Shown here: piece by piece, positions 1 through 29,379 of the stretch | Layout of the letters: each line of letters opens with the position of its first letter | How positions within the stretch are numbered: position 1 is the stretch's first letter | From: a virus | Taxonomy: Duplodnaviria; Caudoviricetes | IMG/VR virus record: IMGVR_UViG_3300043185_000108 | Coordinates: 1-29,687 of that record | Strand: one strand, 5' to 3' | DNA: 29,687 nucleotides | Notes under the pieces: generated by a model | What the model saw: the letters and a program-made list of their open reading frames with translations, nothing else | Told to the model about the DNA's origin: nothing | Database searches by the model: none | Translations under genes and position numbers: made by a program

Positions 1-406
1 GGCAGATCTCGACGCCGTGGTAGAAGCCGTTCAGCGCCAGGTTCTGCGGCAGGTAGGTTTCGGTGAGGATCGGGTTGGGTTCGCAGGCGACGACGCGGCC
101 GGTCGGACCGCAGGCGCCGGCCATCAACAGGGTGTAGTAGCCGTAGTTCGCGCCGACATCGACGCACCAGCAGCCTGGCTGCAGATGGCGGGCGATGGCG
201 AGCGTCACCCACGACTCCCAAAAACCGTCCAGCACCAGACGCGGGCCAAGCATCAGGTCGCGCGTATCCACAAAGGCCAGAAAGTCACCGAGCAGCCGGC
301 ACAGGAGGCGGTGGTCTCCGTAATAGACGCCGGCGGCGTGTTGGCGACTATGGACCTCCAGGTCCAATCGGCTGGCTCGCAGAAAACTTGAGAGAGGCAT
401 GGTCAT
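1..406 (-). CDS. FkbM-family SAM-dependent methyltransferase (runs off window start; absent from the ORF track)
   Basis: Manual translation from ATG at 406: MTMPLSSFLRASRLDLE...GFWESWVT...CVDVGANYGYYTLLMAGACGPTGRVVACEPNP. DVGAN-G-Y and EPNP are FkbM motifs. ATGA overlap with the stop of the upstream glycosyltransferase. Confidence 0.85.
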   Translation of the reverse strand, partial: MTMPLSSFLRASRLDLEVHSRQHAAGVYYGDHRLLCRLLGDFLAFVDTRDLMLGPRLVLDGFWESWVTLAIARHLQPGCWCVDVGANYGYYTLLMAGACGPTGRVVACEPNPILTETYLPQNLALNGFYHGVEIC

Positions 407-1743
407 TTCTCCAGGGGAATGAACTCGATGGGCATCCGCTCGTGTTCGAGCCATTGGCCCGTCCACACGGCGTCGCCATTACGTTGCAGGTGACAGGTGG
501 GCCGGTCCAACCGGCTCAAGGTCAGGATGGTCACGCCGTCGTCGATGTTGATGTCCCAGCGCCGTTCGCAATCAGCCGCGCCTTCGCCGACCCGGCCCGC
601 CGGTTCCAGGAGGACGGGCCGCTCATCGTGGCCGACGCGGCGGTACAGAAAACGCCGGCCGGTCAGCTCGGCGATGACCCGCTGTTCCGCGGGCGTCGGG
701 TCGAGGTTGTGCCAGAGGACGCCATCCCAGCGCTTGCGCAGGTCGGCCACGAAGTTGAAGCAGAGTTCCTCATTCGCCAGGGAATTGTTCCGGCGGTTGC
801 CGCCGCCGAGCTTCCATTTGTCCTGGCAGCGGTGATTGAACATCTGCTGGTCCCGGAAGTCCCACTGCACGATGGTGTGCTGATTCCAGCCGGGTGCTTT
901 GCTCGGCATGGCGTAGTCGCTGCCGAGCTTGCGCCAGCCGAGGTGGAAGCATTCCTTGTCGCCGTACACGACTCGAAACACGAAGTCCGAGTGCTCGGCG
1001 TACCACAGCGCCATGCGGAGTTCGCTCCAGCACCGGGTCTTGTTGATCAGGTATTGGCCGCTCTCGAACGCCACTTCGCTTTGCCAGCGGGCGGCGACCT
1101 CCGGGATGTCGAAGATTTCCCACACGTCGCGTTTGAGTTGCCAGCAGGCGTAGTCGGGCCAGAAGATCGCTCCCTTCTCCAGGTACTCGGGCCAGGTGAA
1201 GACCTCGGTCACGTCGCGGCACGGCCCGCAGTCGGCATCGAGGAACAGCACCTCCTCGAACGGGGAGTGCAGCGTGGAAAACGGCTTCAACTCCCAGCCG
1301 CAGAGAATGCGACACGGATGCTCCTTTTCGACCTGGCGGGCATCGACGCACTCGACGCCGAGCGGCTTCAGGAGCCGGCGCAGATACGGATCGATCTCGC
1401 CCTTCCCCAGATGCCAGAGTTGGATCGGCAACGTGCAGCCGAAGTGGCGGATCAGGTGGACCCCAACCCAGACGCTGGGGAAGTACTTCAGCCCGCCGCC
1501 GGCAATGACGATGCCGCGCCCCTCCGCGTAGGCGTGCCGGCCCGGCGTCAGGCTGTCGGCGAAGCGCCGGGCCATGACGCGGAGCGCCTCGTTGACGTTC
1601 GGCCACGCCGCCCAGCCGTTGGGCCAGGGACCGGGCGGGGCGCTTTCGATCAGGCGGATCATGTCCTCGACCGACAGGTCCTGCGTCGCCGAGTCGCACT
1701 TCGTCCAGTCGATGGCTGCCTTCTCTTGAAGGGTGGTGCTCAT
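403..1743 (-). CDS. Glycosyltransferase, GT71/Mnn2-like alpha-mannosyltransferase family, with extra C-terminal domain
   Basis: Motifs GRGIVIAGGG, IRHFGCTLPIQLW, K-FSTLHSPFEEVLFLDAD (DxD), FWPDY, ESGQYLINK and YGDKECF occur in the conserved order of GT71 blocks. Confidence 0.8.
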   Translation of the reverse strand: MSTTLQEKAAIDWTKCDSATQDLSVEDMIRLIESAPPGPWPNGWAAWPNVNEALRVMARRFADSLTPGRHAYAEGRGIVIAGGGLKYFPSVWVGVHLIRHFGCTLPIQLWHLGKGEIDPYLRRLLKPLGVECVDARQVEKEHPCRILCGWELKPFSTLHSPFEEVLFLDADCGPCRDVTEVFTWPEYLEKGAIFWPDYACWQLKRDVWEIFDIPEVAARWQSEVAFESGQYLINKTRCWSELRMALWYAEHSDFVFRVVYGDKECFHLGWRKLGSDYAMPSKAPGWNQHTIVQWDFRDQQMFNHRCQDKWKLGGGNRRNNSLANEELCFNFVADLRKRWDGVLWHNLDPTPAEQRVIAELTGRRFLYRRVGHDERPVLLEPAGRVGEGAADCERRWDINIDDGVTILTLSRLDRPTCHLQRNGDAVWTGQWLEHERMPIEFIPLEK

Positions 1744-3154: not shown

Positions 3155-4453
3155 ATGGCGGCAAGCCAGATAAGCGGCGTCATCCAACACCTTCGCAGAA
3201 CGGTACTTCAGCGGGACGGTGCGGGGCTGACCGATGGACAACTCCTGACGGAATACCTCAGCAGCCGTGACGAGGCGGCTCTTGCAGCCCTTGTGCGTCG
3301 GCATGGTTCGATGGTCTGGGGCGTGTGCCGCCGTGTCCTCCGCAACCACCACGATGCCGAGGACGCCTTCCAGGCGACCTTTCTGGTGTTCGTCCGCAAG
3401 GCGGCGTCGATTGCCACGAGGGAGTTGGTGGCCAACTGGCTCTACGGGGTGGCACTCCAGACGGCGCTCAAGGCGAGGGCGACCGCCGCCAAACGGAAGG
3501 AGCGAGAAAGACAGGTGATGGAGATGCCCGAACCAGCCGTGACGGAAGATGCCCTGTGGCGTGATTTCCAACCCTTGCTGGATGAAGAGTTGAGCCGCTT
3601 GCCTGACAAGTATCGTGCCGTCATCGTCCTGTGTGATCTGGAAGGCAAGACCCGCAAGGAGGCGGCTGGGCAACTCGGCGTGCCGGAAGGGACGGTTGGC
3701 GGGTGGCTGGCGCGGGCGCGGGCGATGCTGGCGAAGCGGCTGACTCAGCGTGGCGTAGCCCTGTCGGGTGGGGCGTTGGCGGCGGTGCTGTCGCACAAGG
3801 TGGCGTCGGCGGGCGTGCCGACCTCGGTGGTGTGTTCCACAATCAAAGCCGCAACTCTGTTTGCGGCAGGGCAAGCGGCGGCTGCGGGAGCGATCTCGGT
3901 CACGGTCGCCGCGCTGACAGAAGGAGTGCTCAAAACCATGCTGGTGACGAAACTGAAAACCCTCTCGGTGGTGCTGATGGTTGCCGTGGTCGGCATGATG
4001 GCGTTGGGGGTCGGAGCGACGGCCCTAATCGCCGAGCCGCCAGAGGCGAAGCAGGCGGATCGGGACACGCCCAAGCAGAAGGATGACACCATGAACGGCA
4101 ACAAGGCGCGGACGGTGCTGACCCCCGAGGAGGCGATCAAGCAGATGCCGAAAGAGCAGGTCACGGTGGAGTTCACGGTCAAGAGGGCTGCCATCAGCCC
4201 CAACCCTGCCTTCGTCCCCGAAGGGGGAGAGGTTGATGACATTTGGCTGGAATACGGCGACAGGTTCTACGTCACTCTCGCACGCAAAGCCGTCACGCAT
4301 GTCAAGCGGCTCGGCATCGAACCCAGCGTGTTCTTCCGTGACAAGCTGATCCGTGTGACGGGACGTATCTGGCCTGAGCAAGAGGCTGCGGGCAAGGACA
4401 CTCGCTACAGAATATGGATCGACAGCCTCGATCAGCTGGAGGTCGTGAAGTAG
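3155..4453 (+). CDS. Planctomycete-type ECF sigma-70 factor with C-terminal extension (TM helix plus putative OB-fold domain), ECF57-like
   Basis: Region 2 LVRRHGSMVWGVCRRVLRNHHDAEDAFQATFLV and region 4 LPDKYRAVIVLCDLEGKTRKEAAGQLGVPEGTV; Ala-rich linker; hydrophobic LSVVLMVAVVGMMALGVGATALIA. Confidence 0.9.
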   Translation: MAASQISGVIQHLRRTVLQRDGAGLTDGQLLTEYLSSRDEAALAALVRRHGSMVWGVCRRVLRNHHDAEDAFQATFLVFVRKAASIATRELVANWLYGVALQTALKARATAAKRKERERQVMEMPEPAVTEDALWRDFQPLLDEELSRLPDKYRAVIVLCDLEGKTRKEAAGQLGVPEGTVGGWLARARAMLAKRLTQRGVALSGGALAAVLSHKVASAGVPTSVVCSTIKAATLFAAGQAAAAGAISVTVAALTEGVLKTMLVTKLKTLSVVLMVAVVGMMALGVGATALIAEPPEAKQADRDTPKQKDDTMNGNKARTVLTPEEAIKQMPKEQVTVEFTVKRAAISPNPAFVPEGGEVDDIWLEYGDRFYVTLARKAVTHVKRLGIEPSVFFRDKLIRVTGRIWPEQEAAGKDTRYRIWIDSLDQLEVVK

Positions 4454-16362: not shown

Positions 16363-16614
16363 ATGTCGCGCAAATGTCTCGCGTGCGGGCGTCGCCCCGC
16401 CGCGACGACGCCGGAATGGCCGGCGTTGTGTTCATCGTGTCTCAACCGCACCGGCGAACGCATCAAGCCCGGTGCCCGTGTGATCTGCGAAGTCGATGAC
16501 GGGTGCAGCGGGACCGTCAACCGCATCGAAAACGGTCTGGCGGTCGTGACCACCAACGACGGCAAGGAGGCCTGGGTGCCGATCCCGGAATCGATCCGCG
16601 TCACGAGACGATAG
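16363..16614 (+). CDS. Small hypothetical protein (CxxC pair plus SH3/KOW-like segment)
   Basis: GGGAGG RBS; CLAC...CSSC then IKPGARV...GTVNRIENGLAVV...EAWVP. Confidence 0.55.
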   Translation: MSRKCLACGRRPAATTPEWPALCSSCLNRTGERIKPGARVICEVDDGCSGTVNRIENGLAVVTTNDGKEAWVPIPESIRVTRR

Positions 16615-16972
16615 CCATCCTTGGGGGCATCGCCCGGCAATCCACCAGCCGGGCGATGTCCACATACCGCACCGGCTTGCCCAGCTCCCGCGCGATCCGA
16701 ATCTCCTCCCGCACGCCAATGCTCTCCTGCCAACCGTCCAACATCAGAACCACGACCTCATCGCACCGGGCCAGATGCTCGCGGTCGTGCCGTTCCCAAA
16801 ACGACCAATCCGTCGGCAGGCCATGCTCCACAAGCGGATGGCTATGAGCGATCGGCGAAAAGACCGCGTGGCCGGTTTGCATGAGCGCCACGGCCGCGCG
16901 GCATGCATCTCGGAATCGCTTTTCGCGGACGGCTGGGTCGGGATGCGAATAAGGACTGGCAAGGTAGATCAT
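16601..16972 (-). CDS. DUF1937-family protein (nucleoside deoxyribosyltransferase-like fold)
   Basis: IYLASPYSHPD...VFSPIAHSH...CDEVVVLMLDGWQESIGVREEI..A..LGKPV; ATGA coupling to the methyltransferase gene. Confidence 0.8.
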   Translation of the reverse strand: MIYLASPYSHPDPAVREKRFRDACRAAVALMQTGHAVFSPIAHSHPLVEHGLPTDWSFWERHDREHLARCDEVVVLMLDGWQESIGVREEIRIARELGKPVRYVDIARLVDCRAMPPRMAIVS

Positions 16973-18285
16973 GCCGTCGCCTCCTCCGGCACGACGCTGA
17001 TCCGTTCCGCTTTCCGTCCCGTGAACTTCTCGAAGCGCTGGACGATGACGTCGCAGTACAGCGGGTCCAATTCCATCAAGAACGCGCGCCGCCCCGTCTG
17101 CTCGGCGGCGATCAGCGTCGAGCCCGACCCACCGAACAGGTCAATCACGTTCTCCCCGACCCGCGACGAATACTGCATCGCTCGCACGGCCAGCTCGACC
17201 GGCTTCTCGGTGAGGTGGATCATCGACTGCGGGTTGACCTTCTTGATCGGCCAGACATCGACGGCGTTGTTCGGGCCGAGGAAAACGTGCGCCGCGCCTT
17301 CGCGCCAACCATAGAAGCACCACTCGTGGTTCCCCATGAAGTCTTTCCGCGTCAGCACCGGGTGCTCCTTCACCCAGATGATCGCCTGCGAAAAGTACAA
17401 TTCGCACGCCTTCAGCACCGGCGGATAGTTGGCGACGTTGGCGTAGCCGCCCCAGATGTAGAAGCCCCGGCCCGGCAGCAGCACCCGCGCGAGGTTGCCG
17501 AACCAGGCATGGAGCATGCGGTCGAAGTCGTCGTCGGAAACGAAATCGTTGGCGAGCGGCCGGTCCTTGGCGCGGAGCTTTTTGTCGGTCGGCTTGGCCT
17601 TCTCCGGGTGCCGGACCACATCCAGCTTCTGGTGGTGAGTCGTCCCGAACGAGCTGAGGCCGGCGGCGATGGCGTTGTTGGAACGCGGCTCAACCTTCAC
17701 GTTGTAGGGCGGGTCGGTGTTGACCAGGTGAATCGCCGCGCCGTCGAGCAGCCGGTCCACGTCCTCTGCCTTGCCGGCATCGCCGCAGACCAATCGATGA
17801 TCTCCGAGCAACCACACGTCGCCTGGCTGCGTGGTCGCCTCGTCCGGCGGGGCGGGCACGTCGTCGGGATCGCAAAGACCGTCCTTCACGCCAGCGTCGA
17901 GCAGCTTGGCCAGTTCGTCCTGGTCGAAGCCGAGCAGGCCGAGGTCGTAGTTCATGCCCTGCAACTCGGCGAACTCGATGGGCAGCAGATCGTAGTTCCA
18001 GTCCGACAGCTCGGCGGTCTTGTTGTCGGCGATGCGGTACGCCTTGATCTGTTCGGGTGTCAGGTCCTTGGCGACATGGACCGGCGCCTTCTCCAGGCCG
18101 AGCTTCAGCGCCGCCTTGTAGCGGGTGTGGCCGACGATGATGACGCCCTCGGTGTCCACCACGATCGGTTGGCGGAACCCGAATTCGCGGATCGATGCCG
18201 CCACGGCCTCGACGGCATCGTCGTTGACGCGGGGGTTGCCGAGATAGGGCTTGATCTCGGACAGCTTGCGAAGCTCGATCTTCAT
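16969..18285 (-). CDS. ParB-N-terminal-domain fused N6-adenine/N4-cytosine DNA methyltransferase (beta class)
   Basis: NPR.N...SIREFGFRQPIVVD...GHTR (ParB/Srx domain); TDPPY, H.TEKPVEL and DLFGGSGST. Confidence 0.9.
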   Translation of the reverse strand: MKIELRKLSEIKPYLGNPRVNDDAVEAVAASIREFGFRQPIVVDTEGVIIVGHTRYKAALKLGLEKAPVHVAKDLTPEQIKAYRIADNKTAELSDWNYDLLPIEFAELQGMNYDLGLLGFDQDELAKLLDAGVKDGLCDPDDVPAPPDEATTQPGDVWLLGDHRLVCGDAGKAEDVDRLLDGAAIHLVNTDPPYNVKVEPRSNNAIAAGLSSFGTTHHQKLDVVRHPEKAKPTDKKLRAKDRPLANDFVSDDDFDRMLHAWFGNLARVLLPGRGFYIWGGYANVANYPPVLKACELYFSQAIIWVKEHPVLTRKDFMGNHEWCFYGWREGAAHVFLGPNNAVDVWPIKKVNPQSMIHLTEKPVELAVRAMQYSSRVGENVIDLFGGSGSTLIAAEQTGRRAFLMELDPLYCDVIVQRFEKFTGRKAERISVVPEEATA

Positions 18286-22444: not shown

Positions 22445-22785
22445 TCGTTCCGAATGCGGACAAGGGTCTTCCCGCCATCGACGGGCTCCCGTTTTACGAT
22501 GGCCAGGCGAACGACCTGGCTGTCATCCAGATAAGCGCCGCCGTGCTGCAGCGCATCGAGTAGGGCTTTTTGCACGTTGTCGATGTCGCGCCGACGGTTG
22601 TCGGGCGGATACACTTCGACTTCCACGGCGAGCGGTCCGTGCAGCGGCTCGCAGGCGAGGGCCGCGAGGATCGCCATGACGCGCTGCCGGAAGCGGCGGC
22701 CTTCGCGGCTGATCAGGGTTCGCGGCCCCACCCGTCGCCAGTAATGATTGATGGACGGCGGATAGGGCAGCACGATCTCGAACAT
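22441..22785 (-). CDS. rusA: RusA Holliday junction resolvase
   Basis: LPYPPSINHYWR...PPDNRRRDIDNVQKALLDAL...DDSQV; TGATG overlap with the upstream stop. Confidence 0.9.
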   Translation of the reverse strand: MFEIVLPYPPSINHYWRRVGPRTLISREGRRFRQRVMAILAALACEPLHGPLAVEVEVYPPDNRRRDIDNVQKALLDALQHGGAYLDDSQVVRLAIVKREPVDGGKTLVRIRNE

Positions 22786-23249
22786 CAAGAGCGCCTCCAC
22801 GGCGGTGCGCTGTTCGCCGACGGCTGTGTGTTCGCCGGAACCGCCGCCAGCGAATCCTTCTTGGCGTAGCCCTTGATCTCGTTGGCCAGCTCGCCGGTGT
22901 CATCGCGCTTCTTGCACTTGACGTGGACCACCAGCGGCAGGTTGTGAAGCTCCACCGAGTCGTTGGGGGCCAGCACGCCCACAGCCCGACAGATCGCGGA
23001 CAACTCCGCGCGCGCGATCTGCACCGCAGTCGCGTTCGGGTTGTCGAGATTCAGGCGAGCCCACAGCAGGCGGTTCTTGAACGGGCCTTCCATGACCTGG
23101 AAGGTGAGCTGGAGAAAGTGCCCGGTGCCGGCCTTGTTGGGCTTCATCTCGCTCTCGGTGACGATGGCCAGATACTTGCCGGCCGGGATCGGATCGAAGT
23201 CGGTGGACGGTTCCACCCGGTTGGCATCGAACCTGGGGAGATCGGCCAA
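22785..23249 (-). CDS. DUF669-family phage single-stranded DNA-binding protein
   Basis: FDPIPAGKY..IVTESEMK....G.G..LQLTFQV.EG....R..W.RLNL...NEIKGY...PPW; TTG start without a clear RBS. Confidence 0.8.
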   Translation of the reverse strand: MADLPRFDANRVEPSTDFDPIPAGKYLAIVTESEMKPNKAGTGHFLQLTFQVMEGPFKNRLLWARLNLDNPNATAVQIARAELSAICRAVGVLAPNDSVELHNLPLVVHVKCKKRDDTGELANEIKGYAKKDSLAAVPANTQPSANSAPPWRRS

Positions 23250-23264
23250 ACAGAAATGGACGAA

Positions 23265-25034
23265 CTACTGGACACGCAGTTGGTTGACGCGCAGGAACTC
23301 CGCCGGGTCGGTGAAGGCCGTGAAGAACAGCGGCTTGCCGGAGAACGCCAGCGGCGAAACGGGACCGACCGCCATGAATGGGAACTCTTGCAGGTCGCGG
23401 CGTGGGAAGCTCTGCGGATCACGGAACGACTGGTAAAGCTCCAGCGACCGTTTGTCGCCGCCGGCGAAGTCTCGCAGCCGGTCGAATTCGGTCCCCATCG
23501 CCAGACCGAAGCCAAAGGCGAGAATCCGCAGCTGCTGGAGAATCTCATTGTCGATGCCGCCGAGCGTTTGGCTGATGAAGAACCAGCCGATGCCGTACTT
23601 CCGCGTTTCGCGCACGGCCCGGCGCAGCAGGGACCGGAGGCGATCCGCCTCGGAGCCTTCGTCCAGCCGGCCGCTCGGCGCATGACGATGGGCCTCGTCG
23701 AGCAGCACGAGCACGTTCGCGCTTTGCTGGGTGCTCAGGGCTGATGTGGCCTGCGCCACCAGGATGTTGAGGAGCTTGGCCAGAATTCTGCGCTGCAATT
23801 CCTCGGACCAGAATCGCTGGTTGCCCTGCCGGGAAATGTCAATCACGATGACCGGGCGGGGAGAATTGCCTCCAGCCGATCCGAGGAGCCGGTTGACGAT
23901 GCCTGGCTGTTGCTGCCCATAGCTGTAAAGCCGGTGCCTGTTCTGCCCCCGCGTAAAGAGCTGGCAAATTGGTTGCCAGGTGTTGGTGAGCAGTTGATTC
24001 TGCGCCTGCTGATCGCCGAGGAACCGTTGGACACGCTGCTGAAGCTGCTGGGCACGCTGCTTGGTCGTGTAGATGAAACCGGCGTTGTTGGGGTCATTGA
24101 CGGCGTTCAGAGCGGCCTGGAGAACTGGAAGCGTCCCCAGGGCGTCGAGGTTGTGCGTCCCCTCCAGGGCGTTACGCACAACCTCAGCGGCCCGGCGAGC
24201 ATTCTCGGCCGATGCGCTCGGAATCTGCAACTGCTCGAAGAACCGCAAGGAGATGAGCATCTCCTCGAAAGTGGTCCAGTCGTCCAGCTGGATGTCGCCG
24301 ATCCTGAAGACCTCGATCGGTCGCCCCTGCGACCGAATCGCCTGGTCAAGCTGCAATCCCTGCTGGCCGACGCGAGTGCCGGAGAGCTCCAGTGAGAATT
24401 CCCCCTGTGGGTCGATGACCAGAATTCCAAGCTGGGGATGGCGGGAGTAGGCGCACAGCATCATCTTTGCCAGGCCCGACTTGCCGGAACCCGTCTTGCC
24501 GAAAACGCCAAGATGGTACGCTTCACCCGCGCCGCCCGCTCCGCTGCCGAAGTGCTTGAACCACATGGGGTAGAGCACGTCGTTCGCGTAGGCTTTCCCC
24601 AGGTAGACGATTTCCTGTTGATAGACTGACAGCAACTGGTTCAACAGTGCCTGATCGACGCGGAACACGCGGGTGCCAGTAGGCGGGACCATGCCCAGCA
24701 CCTCCGGCTCGTAGCCGTTGCTCCCCTGGCGGAACGTCGCGCCGACAACCAGGTCCGCGATGCGGGTGTCCTGCCGGTTGGTGATCGGGGGAATCTCTCC
24801 CGTCCGCTTGACGAGGTTGCGGAAAACGGAGTCCTCGTGCCAGCGGTTTCGCAGCTCGATGCCGACGACCTGGCCAACGGAAATGATGGGCGTGCCGTTC
24901 TGGCTGGCGCGGAACGCTGTCAGCGCGCCTACCATGCGTTCTTCGGTCGCTTCGAGCAGGAGGTCGAGCGTCAGTTCGGTGTTGGACGACGGGCTGCCGA
25001 TCACGGCCACGTCCTGGTTGCGTTCCGCCGACAT
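23265..25034 (-). CDS. herA: HerA-family ATPase/DNA translocase (N-terminal HAS barrel)
   Basis: HLGVFGKTGSGKS, IDPQGEF, LLDEAH and RETRKYGIG..FISQ; GAGGAGG RBS 2 nt after the nurA stop. Confidence 0.88.
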   Translation of the reverse strand: MSAERNQDVAVIGSPSSNTELTLDLLLEATEERMVGALTAFRASQNGTPIISVGQVVGIELRNRWHEDSVFRNLVKRTGEIPPITNRQDTRIADLVVGATFRQGSNGYEPEVLGMVPPTGTRVFRVDQALLNQLLSVYQQEIVYLGKAYANDVLYPMWFKHFGSGAGGAGEAYHLGVFGKTGSGKSGLAKMMLCAYSRHPQLGILVIDPQGEFSLELSGTRVGQQGLQLDQAIRSQGRPIEVFRIGDIQLDDWTTFEEMLISLRFFEQLQIPSASAENARRAAEVVRNALEGTHNLDALGTLPVLQAALNAVNDPNNAGFIYTTKQRAQQLQQRVQRFLGDQQAQNQLLTNTWQPICQLFTRGQNRHRLYSYGQQQPGIVNRLLGSAGGNSPRPVIVIDISRQGNQRFWSEELQRRILAKLLNILVAQATSALSTQQSANVLVLLDEAHRHAPSGRLDEGSEADRLRSLLRRAVRETRKYGIGWFFISQTLGGIDNEILQQLRILAFGFGLAMGTEFDRLRDFAGGDKRSLELYQSFRDPQSFPRRDLQEFPFMAVGPVSPLAFSGKPLFFTAFTDPAEFLRVNQLRVQ

Positions 25035-25036
25035 GT

Positions 25037-26158
25037 CTATCCTCCTCGGCCGCCTTCGGTGCGGTAGTTTTGCAGGAACAGCATCGTCGTCTCCCCGTCA
25101 GGGGAGTCGCCAGCGACGTGCTGAGCCACGGCCTGTTCGATGACCGCGACACCCGCTCCCAAGCTCTTGACCATTCGGTCGGCCAGGAAAAGTGGGTATG
25201 GCTCGATGACAGCAGGGCTGAAGAACTGCCGCTCGATGCCGTGCAGCACAATCGACAAACGGGGCAGGCTGGACGCGATTGGCTTTGGCAATTCCAGCCT
25301 GATCGCGGGCACCCAGCCAAAGGGCCGGAAGAAGATGACGCGCATGTCCGCCAAATGCTGATTGATGAGCTTCTGCGTCTGCTCTGGGCAACTTCCCTTC
25401 GGCAGGTGGTATTCCTGATCCTCGCCGCCGAAATGGTAGATCGGCTCAGGAGCCGTGTATTCACCGGGGGACAAGATCAACGTCGCCAGGGTTTTCCCAT
25501 CCGTTTCGGGCAAGTTGTTGCCCGTGAGCAAATCCGCGAGCTCGTTTCGACCCGAGTACTTCGGGACGGCAACGGTGCGCTCACTTCCCAGCAATCCCAC
25601 GAATCGGTCAAGGACTTCTTCATCATGCCAACGTCGTTGAAACTCATCGCGGAGCATCTGCGGGGCCTCGCCAACGCTCGTCAACCCTTGGTTCAGGTAG
25701 ATCAGCAGGATGATGAAGGAGCCGTCCAGCAGCACGAGGTCGTGCGGGGCCTTCGCCGCAAGATCGAGTTCCATCGAGATCATCAGGCCGCGCAGCGTGT
25801 TGGTGACGTTTTTGCTGTGCTCAAGCGACTCGACCCACATCCGGTGGTGCGGTTTCTCCCAATGGCGCTTCGCCTCCTTCGAGGTTCCCTCGACGGCCAC
25901 GGACGCGGCCGCACACAAGTCAACCGCCGTGAGACGATGGACCTGGTAGGAACCGTCGATACCAACGACAGAAGGCTCACGCGGAACATCCAGGTCCGCC
26001 TTTCGTCGAATCCAGCCGCGCCGTTCGGCCTCAGTGCGCAGAGATGGCTTGGCCCGCCGGAGGGCTTGCAGGTTTTGATTTACGCCCTCCGCAACCGGCA
26101 AGGCCTTGGCCAGGAGGTCTTGCACCAGCGCGTCTGGAAGATCGGCAAAGGCTTCCAA
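25037..26158 (-). CDS. nurA: NurA-family nuclease
   Basis: VVGIDGS, ME, VLLDGS, AVPKYS and PYPLFLADRMVK; adjacent to herA. Confidence 0.85.
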   Translation of the reverse strand: MEAFADLPDALVQDLLAKALPVAEGVNQNLQALRRAKPSLRTEAERRGWIRRKADLDVPREPSVVGIDGSYQVHRLTAVDLCAAASVAVEGTSKEAKRHWEKPHHRMWVESLEHSKNVTNTLRGLMISMELDLAAKAPHDLVLLDGSFIILLIYLNQGLTSVGEAPQMLRDEFQRRWHDEEVLDRFVGLLGSERTVAVPKYSGRNELADLLTGNNLPETDGKTLATLILSPGEYTAPEPIYHFGGEDQEYHLPKGSCPEQTQKLINQHLADMRVIFFRPFGWVPAIRLELPKPIASSLPRLSIVLHGIERQFFSPAVIEPYPLFLADRMVKSLGAGVAVIEQAVAQHVAGDSPDGETTMLFLQNYRTEGGRGG

Positions 26159-26181
26159 GGCTTCACCCTTTGAAACTCATG

Positions 26182-27330
26182 TCACTTTCGACAAAGGCGA
26201 AAGGACTCGTTGGAGTAGTCCGCGAATTCCCGATTGCGCTCAGCACGAGGGATGAGCCATCGATTACGGAAGAACGCTGCAAGATCATCAGCGGGCTGGT
26301 GAAACCACAATAGCCGCTGGTGCTCGCCGCGGAGGAACTCGCGGGCGTTTTTCGCCAGAGGCATGACGAACAACTCTCGGCGAATCCCGTGGTTCATCAA
26401 GTTGCCGGAAAGGCCGACGTGGGCCAGGACCCGTCGAACGACTTCACGACGGTTGCGAAACCCCGTTCCCCAGGATTCGTGCTTGGCCGTCTTGTCACAG
26501 TATTTCTCCGCGTAATCACGCAGCTGAGAATAAGCCCCGTTGCTGAACTGAAACTCGCCCCAACCGCTCGTATGGCCGACGGACAGCATCAGCAACCTGT
26601 CGTGATACCGCAGGCGGTTGTAGATCGAAGAACGCCCCAGGGCCGAGGTGGTCGCAATCAGGGCCAGACGTCCGTCGGCGGTAGCGCCTGTGATCAGGGA
26701 CTCCCCCTCGCCGTACTTTCGCTGAAACGCCCGTCTCACTTCGTCGCTGGCACACAGCATGGCGACCAGCTTGCCGCCGAGTAACATGGAGTACGGCGGC
26801 ACAGCCCCGAGGATGAACGCCTCCAGGACGTTCCGCAGCCTGGCTTTCCGGGCGTTCAGGTTCCAGCCTATCCAGGCATCGCGTGCCGCCACGCTGAAGA
26901 CCGGATCGCACAGCCCGAACAGGCCGATCAGTTTGCCGTTGTGGGCATCCTCGACCAGGAAGCGCAAGCGCCGGCCGTAACCCGACGATGTGGGAATGCT
27001 CCAGTGCAGGCTCGCATAGCGGAAGAGGAGCTCGTCCTCTGAGTCGGGGCGTACCTCAACGAGACGTGGAGCGACCTTCGCTGGTTCGACCTCGCTTCCC
27101 GAAGCGATGCGCCCGAGCAACCGGTCCTCATAACGCCCGAGGCGTGGCTGGGCTTCCTCGACGCGATGCTGGACGGACAAGCGGTGCAGGCATCGGAGCT
27201 TGTCCTTGGTCGCCTTCTTGGACAAGACAATCTGATCGTCTCGAATGCGAAAGCCCTGCCGGCGCAGGGAATCTTCGATCAGTTCGCGTAGCTTGGCCCG
27301 TTTCTGGGATGAAGCTTTGGTCATGTTCAT
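26182..27330 (-). CDS. DUF4338 / Druantia DruA-like protein
   Basis: WSIPTSSGYGRRLRFLV.D..NGKLIG...L.DPV.....RD.WIGW, GAVPPY..LLGGKLVA and TTSALGRSSIYNRL. Confidence 0.8.
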   Translation of the reverse strand: MNMTKASSQKRAKLRELIEDSLRRQGFRIRDDQIVLSKKATKDKLRCLHRLSVQHRVEEAQPRLGRYEDRLLGRIASGSEVEPAKVAPRLVEVRPDSEDELLFRYASLHWSIPTSSGYGRRLRFLVEDAHNGKLIGLFGLCDPVFSVAARDAWIGWNLNARKARLRNVLEAFILGAVPPYSMLLGGKLVAMLCASDEVRRAFQRKYGEGESLITGATADGRLALIATTSALGRSSIYNRLRYHDRLLMLSVGHTSGWGEFQFSNGAYSQLRDYAEKYCDKTAKHESWGTGFRNRREVVRRVLAHVGLSGNLMNHGIRRELFVMPLAKNAREFLRGEHQRLLWFHQPADDLAAFFRNRWLIPRAERNREFADYSNESFRLCRK

Positions 27331-27797
27331 GGTTCCGAAATACCACTCTTTGGGGATTTTACGGGAAGAACCATCACATCGCTATGTTGGTTGGGCTCAG
27401 CAAGCTCGTGCCACATTCGACGCTGTTTCCGCCAATCAGGCGCAGCTGAAATCGGCTGCAGCTGACGCAAGTGGATCGGGTCGCGGCCATGCTCCGTCCG
27501 GGGCAGGAAGAGGATAGCCGCCTGGATGTCAGGGGCCAGGTTCAAGAGATTCATGATCTGGCTGATGCGCGGGCGGCTCACATGGCCCAGCGCGGCCAGT
27601 TCGCCGAAGGCGGAAACCTGGCCGGCGCGGAGGTACTCCTCGAAGCGAATCGCCAGCGCCATGAGGCGGGCGACGCGCGGGACCCGCCCTGGCTCCCTGA
27701 CCGGGCGCGGCGGTTCCTGCCCGACTGCCATTTCCCGACGGCTGCCCCGGCCGCGCCGGCGGAAGTGGACGTTGCACTCGAAGGTGGGATTCGTCAT
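27327..27797 (-). CDS. HTH protein associated with the serine recombinase module
   Basis: ELAALGHVSRPRISQIMNLLNLAPDIQ helix-turn-helix; ATGA couplings at both ends; AGGAG RBS. Confidence 0.75.
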   Translation of the reverse strand: MTNPTFECNVHFRRRGRGSRREMAVGQEPPRPVREPGRVPRVARLMALAIRFEEYLRAGQVSAFGELAALGHVSRPRISQIMNLLNLAPDIQAAILFLPRTEHGRDPIHLRQLQPISAAPDWRKQRRMWHELAEPNQHSDVMVLPVKSPKSGISEP

Positions 27798-29379
27798 GCG
27801 ATCTTCTCCTTGGGTTGGTTGGCCAGTTCACCAGCCAGCGTTTTGATGCCCGTCGGATGAAAGGTAATGGCGATCTTGCCCTTGGCCCCGTCGTAATCGA
27901 CGCGCTCCACGAGCAGTTGAACCACGCGGGTCTGCTCGCGAAGCGTCAAGGATTCCCAAACTGGACTGAAGACCGATAGGGCCAAGGCGATCTCACGCTC
28001 ATCAACCAGGGTTCGGCTGAGCAGGATGATCTCCTCGCGAATCTCCGTAGCACGGCGCTCTGCGACGCGGATGCGCTCCTGTACGTCGGCCAGGCGCGCG
28101 ACAGCCGGCGTGTCACCGTCGCACGGAGCGACCTGCTCAAGGAGTTTGCGGACCCGGCGCTCCATCGCGCCAGTTCGCGCTCCAGACGCCGGCGCTCGGC
28201 CTCCAACTCCGCGACGCGGGCAACGCCTTGGGCGCGGGCCTCCTTGAACGTCGCATTCAGCATCGTCGGGTCCTTGCCGATACACTTGATCTGCTCAACC
28301 ACGAACCGCTCGATCTCGCCAGCGGGCACGGCCTTCGACGGGCATGAGTGCCAGCCCCGTTTCTGAGCGTTGGAGCAGACGTAATAGCGATAGCGCTTGT
28401 TGCCGTTCCGGGTCGTGTGCGTCGGCGTCATGGCGCAGTCGCAAGGCACGCAACGCAGGACGCCCTTGAGAAGCGCCCCGAATTTGTTTCGCACCAGCGC
28501 TCCCCCGTTGCGGCCATTCCGCTGCAGCAAGGCCTGAACGCGCTGCCAGATGGCGGCGTCCACGATGGCGGCGTGCTCACCGTCGTGGGTTTCGTGCTTG
28601 TACTTGATCTTGCCGACGTAGGCGACATTGGTGAGCAGCTTGTGCAAGCTGGTCTTGGTGAATTGCTTGCCTCCGCGCTCGCGGCCCTTCCGCGTGGTCC
28701 AGCGTTTGTTGAGCCAGCCCCGTCGATTCAGCTCTTCGACGACCGGCATCATGGCCTGGTGCTGAAGGTAAAGCTCGAAGATCGCCCGCACGCGCCCAGC
28801 CTCGTCCTCGTTGACGATCAGCTTGAAGCCGCGCGGGTCGATGTCATATCCCAGGATCGGGTGCCCACCGGCCCATTTTCCCTTGCGCCGGGCGGCGGCG
28901 ATCTTGTCGCGAGTCCGCTCCGAGATGATTTCGCGCTCGAACTGGGCGAACGAGAGGAGCACGTTCAGGACCAGCCGGCCCATCGACGACGCCGTGTTGA
29001 ACTGTTGGGTGACCGACACGAAGGAAACCTGGTGCTTCTCGAACACCTCCATCATCCTGGCGAAGTCGAGAAGCGACCGGCTGAGGCGGTCCACTTTGTA
29101 GACAACGACGCAGTCGATCTTGCCCGCGTCGATGTCCGCCTTTAGCCGCCTGAGCGCGGGCCGGTCCATGTTGCCGCCGGTGAAGCCGCCATCGTCGTAA
29201 TGGCCCGGCAGGCATTCCCAGCCTTCGTGCGTTTGGCTTTTGATGTACGCCTCGCCGGACTCGCGCTGGGCGTCGAGCGAGTTGAACTCCTGCTCCAGGC
29301 CCTCCTCCGTGGATTTGCGCGTGTAGATGGCGCAGCGGACGGTTGGCTTGGGCGGTGGTGCTTTGCGTGTCTTGCTCAT
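27794..29379 (-). pseudogene. Large serine recombinase (integrase) with a 1-nt frameshift near 28154
   Basis: AIYTRKST, YDDGGFTG...RPAL, VYKVDRLSRS, FAQFERE, recombinase domain and Zn ribbon (CVPC...YYVC...C). The coiled-coil and C-terminus continue in another frame (ORF 27794-28285). Confidence 0.88.

Follow-up and report, generated by a model that had tools for sequence, protein, structure and literature searches.

A mobile druA-nurA-herA cassette as a candidate anti-phage system

The gene cassette and its recurrence

A stretch of viral DNA (IMG/VR record IMGVR_UViG_3300043185_000108; Duplodnaviria, Caudoviricetes) was analysed as the entire record of 29,687 nucleotides, hereafter called the window. 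A Pfam scan of 31 open reading frames (ORFs) reveals a prophage backbone with head, terminase, primase, helicase, RusA and DUF669 genes and a serine recombinase. Within this backbone lie druA, nurA and herA (Table 1), a gene trio that an original prediction, made from the sequence alone, had proposed to be an undescribed anti-phage system. Our findings establish the trio as a real, self-contained mobile three-gene cassette, and it likely forms an unnamed anti-phage system. It represents a new variant of the design known from TdpABC rather than a new kind of system, and it belongs neither to Druantia nor to Tdp.

The three genes are minus-strand ORFs with gaps of 23 nucleotides (druA-nurA) and 2 nucleotides (nurA-herA), which confirms that they are co-oriented and tightly spaced. 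DruA is recognized by Pfam family PF14236 (370 bits) and by the PADLOC model DruA1 (379 bits), NurA by PF09376 (32 bits versus a cut-off of 21), and HerA by the DUF87/HerA family PF01935 (45 bits). The catalytic motifs are intact, as had been claimed: all 39 aligned copies of NurA have the acidic residues D68 and D145, and the Walker A (GKTGSGKS, residues 179-186), Walker B (DEA), TRKYG and SQ motifs of HerA are 98-100% conserved in 47 copies. PADLOC behaved as foreseen, recognizing DruA, giving no match for NurA (for which it holds no model) and returning only weak matches for HerA. An NCBIfam scan placed HerA nowhere above cut-off, and the protein reaches only 18-19 bits against antiphage-HerA cut-offs of 800-850. 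Neither Mre11/Rad50 nor a DruE-like protein was detected by Pfam in any of the 31 ORFs scanned, in agreement with the stated absence of mre11/rad50 and of other Druantia genes. The proposed bias towards A/T-ending codons stands for two genes only. The G+C fraction at third codon positions is 0.74 for both druA and nurA, below the range of ten backbone genes (0.79-0.93), but the value of 0.81 for herA falls inside this range. A sigma-70 promoter and a flanking terminator were looked for at the cassette and neither was found. RNA runs contained only about 0.05 of the sequence words.

Table 1. Features of the cassette and of the adjoining prophage DNA (positions in the window).
Feature	Position	Strand	Description
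druA	26182..27330	-	382 aa; DUF4338, long type; predicted GNAT-fold acyltransferase; candidate DNA-modifying subunit
nurA	25037..26158	-	373 aa; NurA-family nuclease; two DGS motifs (D68 and D145)
herA	23265..25034	-	589 aa; HerA/FtsK-type ATPase; Walker A/B, arginine-finger and SQ motifs intact
Cassette interval	23249..27400		~4.15 kb in place of ~5.33 kb of backbone
Conserved prophage ORF (PHROG 14161)	27327..27797	-	last ~22 codons from cassette DNA; stop overlaps druA start (ATGA)
DUF669 gene, right junction	22785..23249	-	TTG start; ATG and AGGAG ribosome-binding site of relatives replaced
Large serine recombinase	27794..29379	-	frameshifted into 477-aa and 163-aa ORFs (Pfam)

Of 8000 scored candidates, 793 are relatives of the window NurA; identity is 68-93% for the 120 best, and the named ones span several phyla. 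A GTDB scan with the window NurA yielded 56 loci (NurA identities 34-95%). Directly upstream of nurA, druA is present in 53 of these loci, herA lies downstream in 50, and all three genes occur in 47. The six loci lacking herA all end at a contig edge, with 0-207 nucleotides remaining, and one of the three loci lacking druA is likewise at a contig end; the other two (L093 and L131) are genuine. Shadow frames of the trio excepted, clustering of all ORFs from 62 loci confined every other family to at most 5 of them. Failure of the linkage between druA and nurA-herA had been set beforehand as a refuting outcome, and the linkage proves reproducible.

With a broader NurA profile, matches were obtained in 3 of 61 genomes of Methylococcus relatives and 2 of 351 Planctomycetota genomes (each count includes the centre genome), a patchy distribution that supports a mobile element. 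The same profile matched in 30 of 351 Chloroflexota genomes. Among 20 close Chloroflexota loci, 14 carry a long DruA, 2 carry a short DUF4338 protein in the druA slot, and 4, all of one syntenic lineage, carry neither. Nine loci of a distant NurA clade, lacking both herA and druA within 1.5 kb, were left out, one further locus is broken, and the gene-context counts in general leave out most of the distant NurA clades. Reciprocally, nurA adjoins 14 of 18 long-type DruA loci in the 351 Chloroflexota genomes, and 2 of the remaining 4 leave no room on the contig. Three plasmid NurA-HerA pairs (approximately 27-32% NurA identity) carry no druA, and therefore only some members of a broader mobile NurA-HerA family are linked to DruA. 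Relatives of the trio show high identity between distant phyla, and broken copies occur at L111, L119, L137 and L183.

Relatives of the three proteins and known systems

According to the known biochemistry of this family, HerA hexamers pump double-stranded DNA into a NurA dimer, and both strands are cut from an end. The structural model of the window NurA (predicted local distance difference test score, pLDDT, 95) matches archaeal and Deinococcus NurA proteins first (Sulfolobus NurA: Z 22.1, root-mean-square deviation, rmsd, 4.0, 294 residues aligned) and chain G of TdpAB after these (8WET: Z 12.4, rmsd 6.6, 278 aligned, 6% identity in the structural alignment). Judged from this model, TdpB has the NurA fold. 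A deep NurA profile searched against PDB sequences retrieved the P. furiosus-type NurA 3TAI alone (E 0.002), and the best PDB sequence match of HerA is TdpA (E 5e-6).

TdpABC is the closest known architecture, with three genes that likewise comprise a modifier, a NurA-fold nuclease and a HerA translocase. TdpAB reportedly degrades unmodified DNA, and TdpC is presumably of the 3'-phosphoadenosine-5'-phosphosulfate (PAPS) reductase type. The candidate modifier of the window differs, being a GNAT-fold DUF4338 protein and not the phosphorothioation enzyme TdpC. Two papers present TdpABC as a phosphorothioation-based restriction-modification (RM) system with tdpC as the sole modifier (PMC13223576, PMC12914056). 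Sequence similarity to the window proteins is so low, both in the structural alignment and for HerA, that the two systems are not orthologous. Membership in Tdp was ruled out, since the third gene is a GNAT-fold DruA rather than TdpC and no other gene recurs.

The DruA family is shared with Druantia type I, and the window protein is 36-41% identical to five full-length plasmid DruA matches. In contrast to Druantia type I, the window holds no DruB, DruC, DruD or DruE, and the DNA-processing machine is NurA-HerA. In a midpoint-rooted tree, DruAs linked to NurA appear to group apart from those linked to Druantia. Among the scanned trio loci, a DruE-like gene lies upstream of the trio in L105 only. 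Membership in Druantia was ruled out because DruE, DruB, DruC and DruD are neither beside druA nor recurrent in the 62 loci.

The archaeal herA-nurA-mre11-rad50 operon and the HerA-NurA pairs of Deinococcus and Thermus resemble the trio in their folds, catalytic motifs and adjacent nurA-herA genes. Unlike the archaeal operon, the trio is mobile, patchy in distribution, linked to DruA and free of mre11/rad50. Neighbour scans of the nearest genes (122, 98 and 50 hand-picked) found neither Mre11 nor Rad50 among recurrent or nearest neighbours, so that the claimed lack of an mre11/rad50 context extends to relatives; together with the result for the window ORFs, this led us to reject an archaeal double-strand-break repair operon. 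Sir2-HerA, DUF4297-HerA and the predicted BRC systems also use a HerA motor in defence, and BRC pairs HerA with a GNAT protein proposed as a marker of self DNA (PMC12839542). In the trio, however, the effector is NurA, and there is no Sir2, DUF4297, PglZ or TGT. The text of the BRC paper names neither NurA nor DruA (PMC12839542). Our literature search, with subscription papers and supplements outside it, returned no description of the trio and no paper naming both DruA and NurA. To this extent the claim that no described system has this trio holds, but it had overlooked TdpABC, which follows the same design.

DruA is also found with other partners. Plasmids carry it within canonical-looking Druantia I operons; in L203 it lies directly beside DruE, and in L143 near DruE. 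At L122 (8771-13137), DruA is 84% identical to that of the window and NurA-HerA only 36-39%, and the divergent pair is followed by a 65-codon remnant of an old herA 3' end that is 97% identical to the end of the window HerA. L122 thus shows an effector swap, with NurA-HerA replaced by a divergent pair. For NurA pairs less than 40% identical, the matching DruAs have a median identity of 49% (65 loci, pairs not independent). A short, Mom-like DUF4338 protein occupies the druA slot before nurA-herA, with no transposase, at L184:7794-8735 and L185:7702-8715, in 2 of 61 genomes searched. As a separate observation, the two-gene unit of druA and a druE-like helicase gene at L203:7142-13853 (G007), with the trio elsewhere in the genome, is a possible minimal Druantia variant.

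An AF2 model of DruA (pLDDT 88.5) has a GNAT fold, and one paper likewise calls DUF4338 a GNAT (PMC10853773). Invariant residues of DruA include H109, W110, T227, Y237 and R239. With VIA-align, the phage Mu protein Mom (8BV8) ranks second of 48,161 chains (Z 9.2, rmsd 3.7, 166 aligned), and in a BFVD structural search a Mom entry ranks tenth (E 0.025). A PDB sequence search with DruA gave no match, and the ESM Atlas returned DruA clusters only. Mom (PF25680) and DruA have the GNAT fold in common, and the bridge between them is formed by short DUF4338 proteins, four of which, picked for the purpose, exceed the cut-offs of both PF14236 and PF25680; short DUF4338 proteins also weakly match a Mom-like PHROG. 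By eye, with no reliable alignment, H-W, Y and G-x-T positions resembling those of Mom are retained in long DruA. In contrast to Mom, which is phage-encoded, DruA is longer and mostly cellular, has no direct profile match to Mom, and does not clearly keep the essential Mom residues. A predicted complex of NurA with DruA scored 0.16 against a mark of 0.32, which is evidence neither way.

In BFVD, the structures that match DruA best belong to uncharacterized proteins of giant viruses (Faunusvirus, E 5e-16; Yasminevirus; Dasosvirus) and to a protein of an uncultured phage. Metagenomes are rich in short DUF4338 genes (an estimated ~14,000 stretches). The commonest downstream family of these genes (L243:5780-7390 and others) is an IS66 transposase, and insertion sequences may carry Mom-like DNA modifiers.

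Proposed mechanism and alternatives

Gene order, patchiness, the absence of a fourth gene, defence neighbours in 13 of 56 loci and the exchange of partners support a defence reading, and a defence function of some kind is probable. In TdpABC a modifier accompanies a NurA-fold nuclease and HerA, and DruA would stand in the modifier's place. We therefore favour, at a probability of roughly 0.5, a TdpABC-like design in which DruA may mark self DNA and HerA-NurA may destroy unmarked DNA. Host DNA would receive an acyl-type (non-methyl) mark from DruA, presumably at adenine N6; incoming DNA without this mark would be broken down by the predicted HerA-NurA complex, so that the mark would gate the nuclease. 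A cassette in a probably defective prophage would in this manner serve the host.

A further proposal is more tentative. DruA might be a cellular Mom-related enzyme that writes a new acyl or aminoacyl mark on adenines of the host chromosome, serving as a common self-mark module for two unrelated restriction machines, DruE in Druantia I and NurA-HerA in the trio, and the 'm6A' (N6-methyladenine) signal of Druantia I might be that mark. According to one report, Mom transfers glycine from Gly-tRNA to adenine N6 in double-stranded DNA (PMC13219725). For Druantia I, a PacBio 'm6A' signal at CAGCTGNC is described only in the presence of the system, in which a methylase is absent and the gene behind the signal is not identified (Ojima et al., 10.1101/2024.04.14.589459).

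On this more tentative view, the trio would be the most compact restriction system to rely on base acylation. DNA modification by DruA, if it occurs, would place a new chemical class of self mark in bacteria beside methylation, phosphorothioation and deazaguanines, and bacterial NurA-HerA would have been recruited to restriction at least two times with different modifiers. The 4-kb three-gene cassette makes the role of DruA, which has no assigned function, directly testable.

Several observations weigh against DruA as a DNA-marking partner of a Tdp-like nuclease. The NurA model is nearer to archaeal repair NurA than to TdpB, and the similarity between HerA and TdpA is weak. The gene pair nurA-herA occurs without druA in 2 of 56 GTDB loci, 4 of 20 close Chloroflexota loci and the three plasmid pairs, and therefore a mark is not always required. 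Many copies of the trio lie among unrelated housekeeping genes, and the 13 of 56 loci with defence neighbours are stated without a background rate. The match to Mom is tied with matches to protein acetyltransferases (KKT23, Z 9.3; YhbS, Z 9.0), and Foldseek found nothing for the DruA model in the PDB at E<=0.001, giving weak GNAT matches only. Direct comparison of DruA with Mom by hhalign is not significant (probability 0.08), and window DruA has no match to PF25680 at E<=5. The indirect path is also thin, with E 0.005 (probability 6.7) between long and short DUF4338 profiles and E 0.07 between the short profile and Mom. Judged by eye, with no reliable alignment, the equivalents of R111 and S124 seem substituted in long DruA, although they are present in short DUF4338 proteins. 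In addition, one paper interprets the DUF4338 GNAT of DndF as possibly a suicidal backup effector aimed at proteins (PMC10853773), and type III Druantia is described as being without DNA modification.

Some of these points would be explained if DruA acylated a protein or tRNA, either to keep HerA-NurA switched off before infection or to act itself as a toxic effector in reserve, with HerA-NurA attacking DNA ends. Most GNAT fold matches, tied with Mom, are protein or small-molecule acetyltransferases, and the proposed role of the DndF protein and the uncertain retention of essential Mom residues agree with such an activity. We nevertheless consider it rather unlikely. DruA remains about 49% identical across unrelated machines, namely DruE and NurA-HerA pairs that are only 35% alike, and therefore a shared substrate such as DNA fits better than a protein-specific regulator; in addition, Druantia I is accompanied by an adenine mark that lacks an explanation. 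Somewhat less probable is a defence that senses ends with no self-mark gate, in which HerA-NurA degrades free-ended linear DNA and DruA has a distinct function despite its linkage, such as protection of host DNA against other nucleases. The circular chromosome has no free ends. The druA-less pairs would suit this arrangement, as would the short DUF4338 genes, which in metagenomes mostly stand apart from nurA and herA (neither gene beside them in 80 loci, many on short contigs) and most often precede an IS66 transposase. HerA-NurA of T. kodakarensis is reported to be loaded at DNA ends and to cleave both strands whatever the shape of the end, and a defence role is proposed for it (PMC12977600). 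However, the order is almost invariant and the spacing tight in 53 of 56 loci, and a second DUF4338 subfamily has been recruited anew to the druA slot in two related genomes, both of which argue for functional coupling.

Two further readings were also weighed. The marking and destroying activities might act as an addiction module that mainly retains itself and the defective prophage and gives little protection from phages, since the trio persists in a prophage with no repressor and a frameshifted recombinase, and at many unrelated chromosomal sites. The broken copies indicate, however, that loss is tolerated, and RM and other defence genes adjoin the trio in 13 of 56 loci, which makes addiction very improbable. 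The lowest probability falls to an accessory repair or recombination module for end resection, standing in for recombination genes lost by the prophage. An archaeal repair NurA is the best fold match, the displaced early region held an AAA_24 ATPase, and some Chloroflexota lineages hold the trio in conserved housekeeping synteny. This module is at odds with the lack of mre11/rad50 among recurrent or nearest neighbours, the patchiness among relatives, the high identity between distant phyla and the absence of the trio from the corresponding slot of related prophages.

Insertion site, prophage and neighbouring genes

Three prophage loci (L003-L005) are the nearest relatives with sequence across the slot, at 77-92% nucleotide identity; in blastn comparisons with them, the match ends at approximately position 27400 and restarts at 23248. 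The displaced DNA, as in L004, encodes a LexA/S24 repressor, a 397-aa ORF, a sigma-like ORF and an AAA_24 ATPase; the repressor, sigma-like and ATPase genes of the relatives were not found in the window. Locally, the repressor and early genes of the prophage have been exchanged for a candidate defence cassette. The trio does lie between the recombinase and the DUF669, RusA and helicase genes, as the original prediction described, but by replacement of backbone and not by plain insertion. The accompanying idea that this integrase-adjacent slot is a defence hotspot gains no support, since repressor and early genes were replaced and none of 80 related prophage loci carries the trio in this early-region slot, which also ruled out the slot as a recurrent home of the trio. 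A divergent trio is present in three further viral contigs, two of which (L138 and L139) retain several early-region genes ahead of DUF669. The cassette ends showed neither repeats nor a target-site duplication.

Both junctions are bridged in contigs of run X1, from which this DNA may derive (the right junction with approximately 30 nucleotides on its short side), and a contig of run X2, from a separate study, likewise spans the left one. An assembly chimera was ruled out by these bridging contigs. Runs X3 and X5 cover the cassette but hardly the recombinase side. One X5 contig enters unlike DNA at approximately 27303, consistent with other contexts of the cassette. The recombinase frameshift corresponds to a net 14-nucleotide length difference relative to L002-L004 and is present in identical sequence in an X1 contig. 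Because its recombinase is frameshifted, the element is probably a defective prophage, and it would be one that carries a host-serving cassette. Elsewhere, the far end of the element carries a mannosyltransferase-like gene (PF11051; window 403-1743) and an opposite-strand sigma-70 ECF-type gene (3155-4453), and the backbone includes a ParB-fused N6/N4 DNA methylase and a DUF1937 gene (16601-18285).

Of the 13 GTDB loci with a PADLOC-type neighbour, 9 were recognized by direct match and 4 by BLAST cluster. The neighbours comprise type I/III RM, Hma, Tiamat, Old, Shedu, a DruE-like helicase, a partial methylase and PDC-S01. Toxin-antitoxin genes or transposases adjoin other copies of the trio. 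An ORF family of ~350 aa lies between druA and nurA at L102:8949-9998 and L109:8945-9979; it is found after herA at L112:12812-13933 and is possibly an insertion element. At L146:5710-10733 (a Natribaculum plasmid), nurA-herA is transcribed divergently from an HFX_2341-like regulator gene. Plasmids of Rhodococcus, Corynebacterium and Dietzia (L148-L150) share a conserved block in which two opposite-strand genes lie between a distant NurA and HerA, with an SMC-family ATPase coming next.

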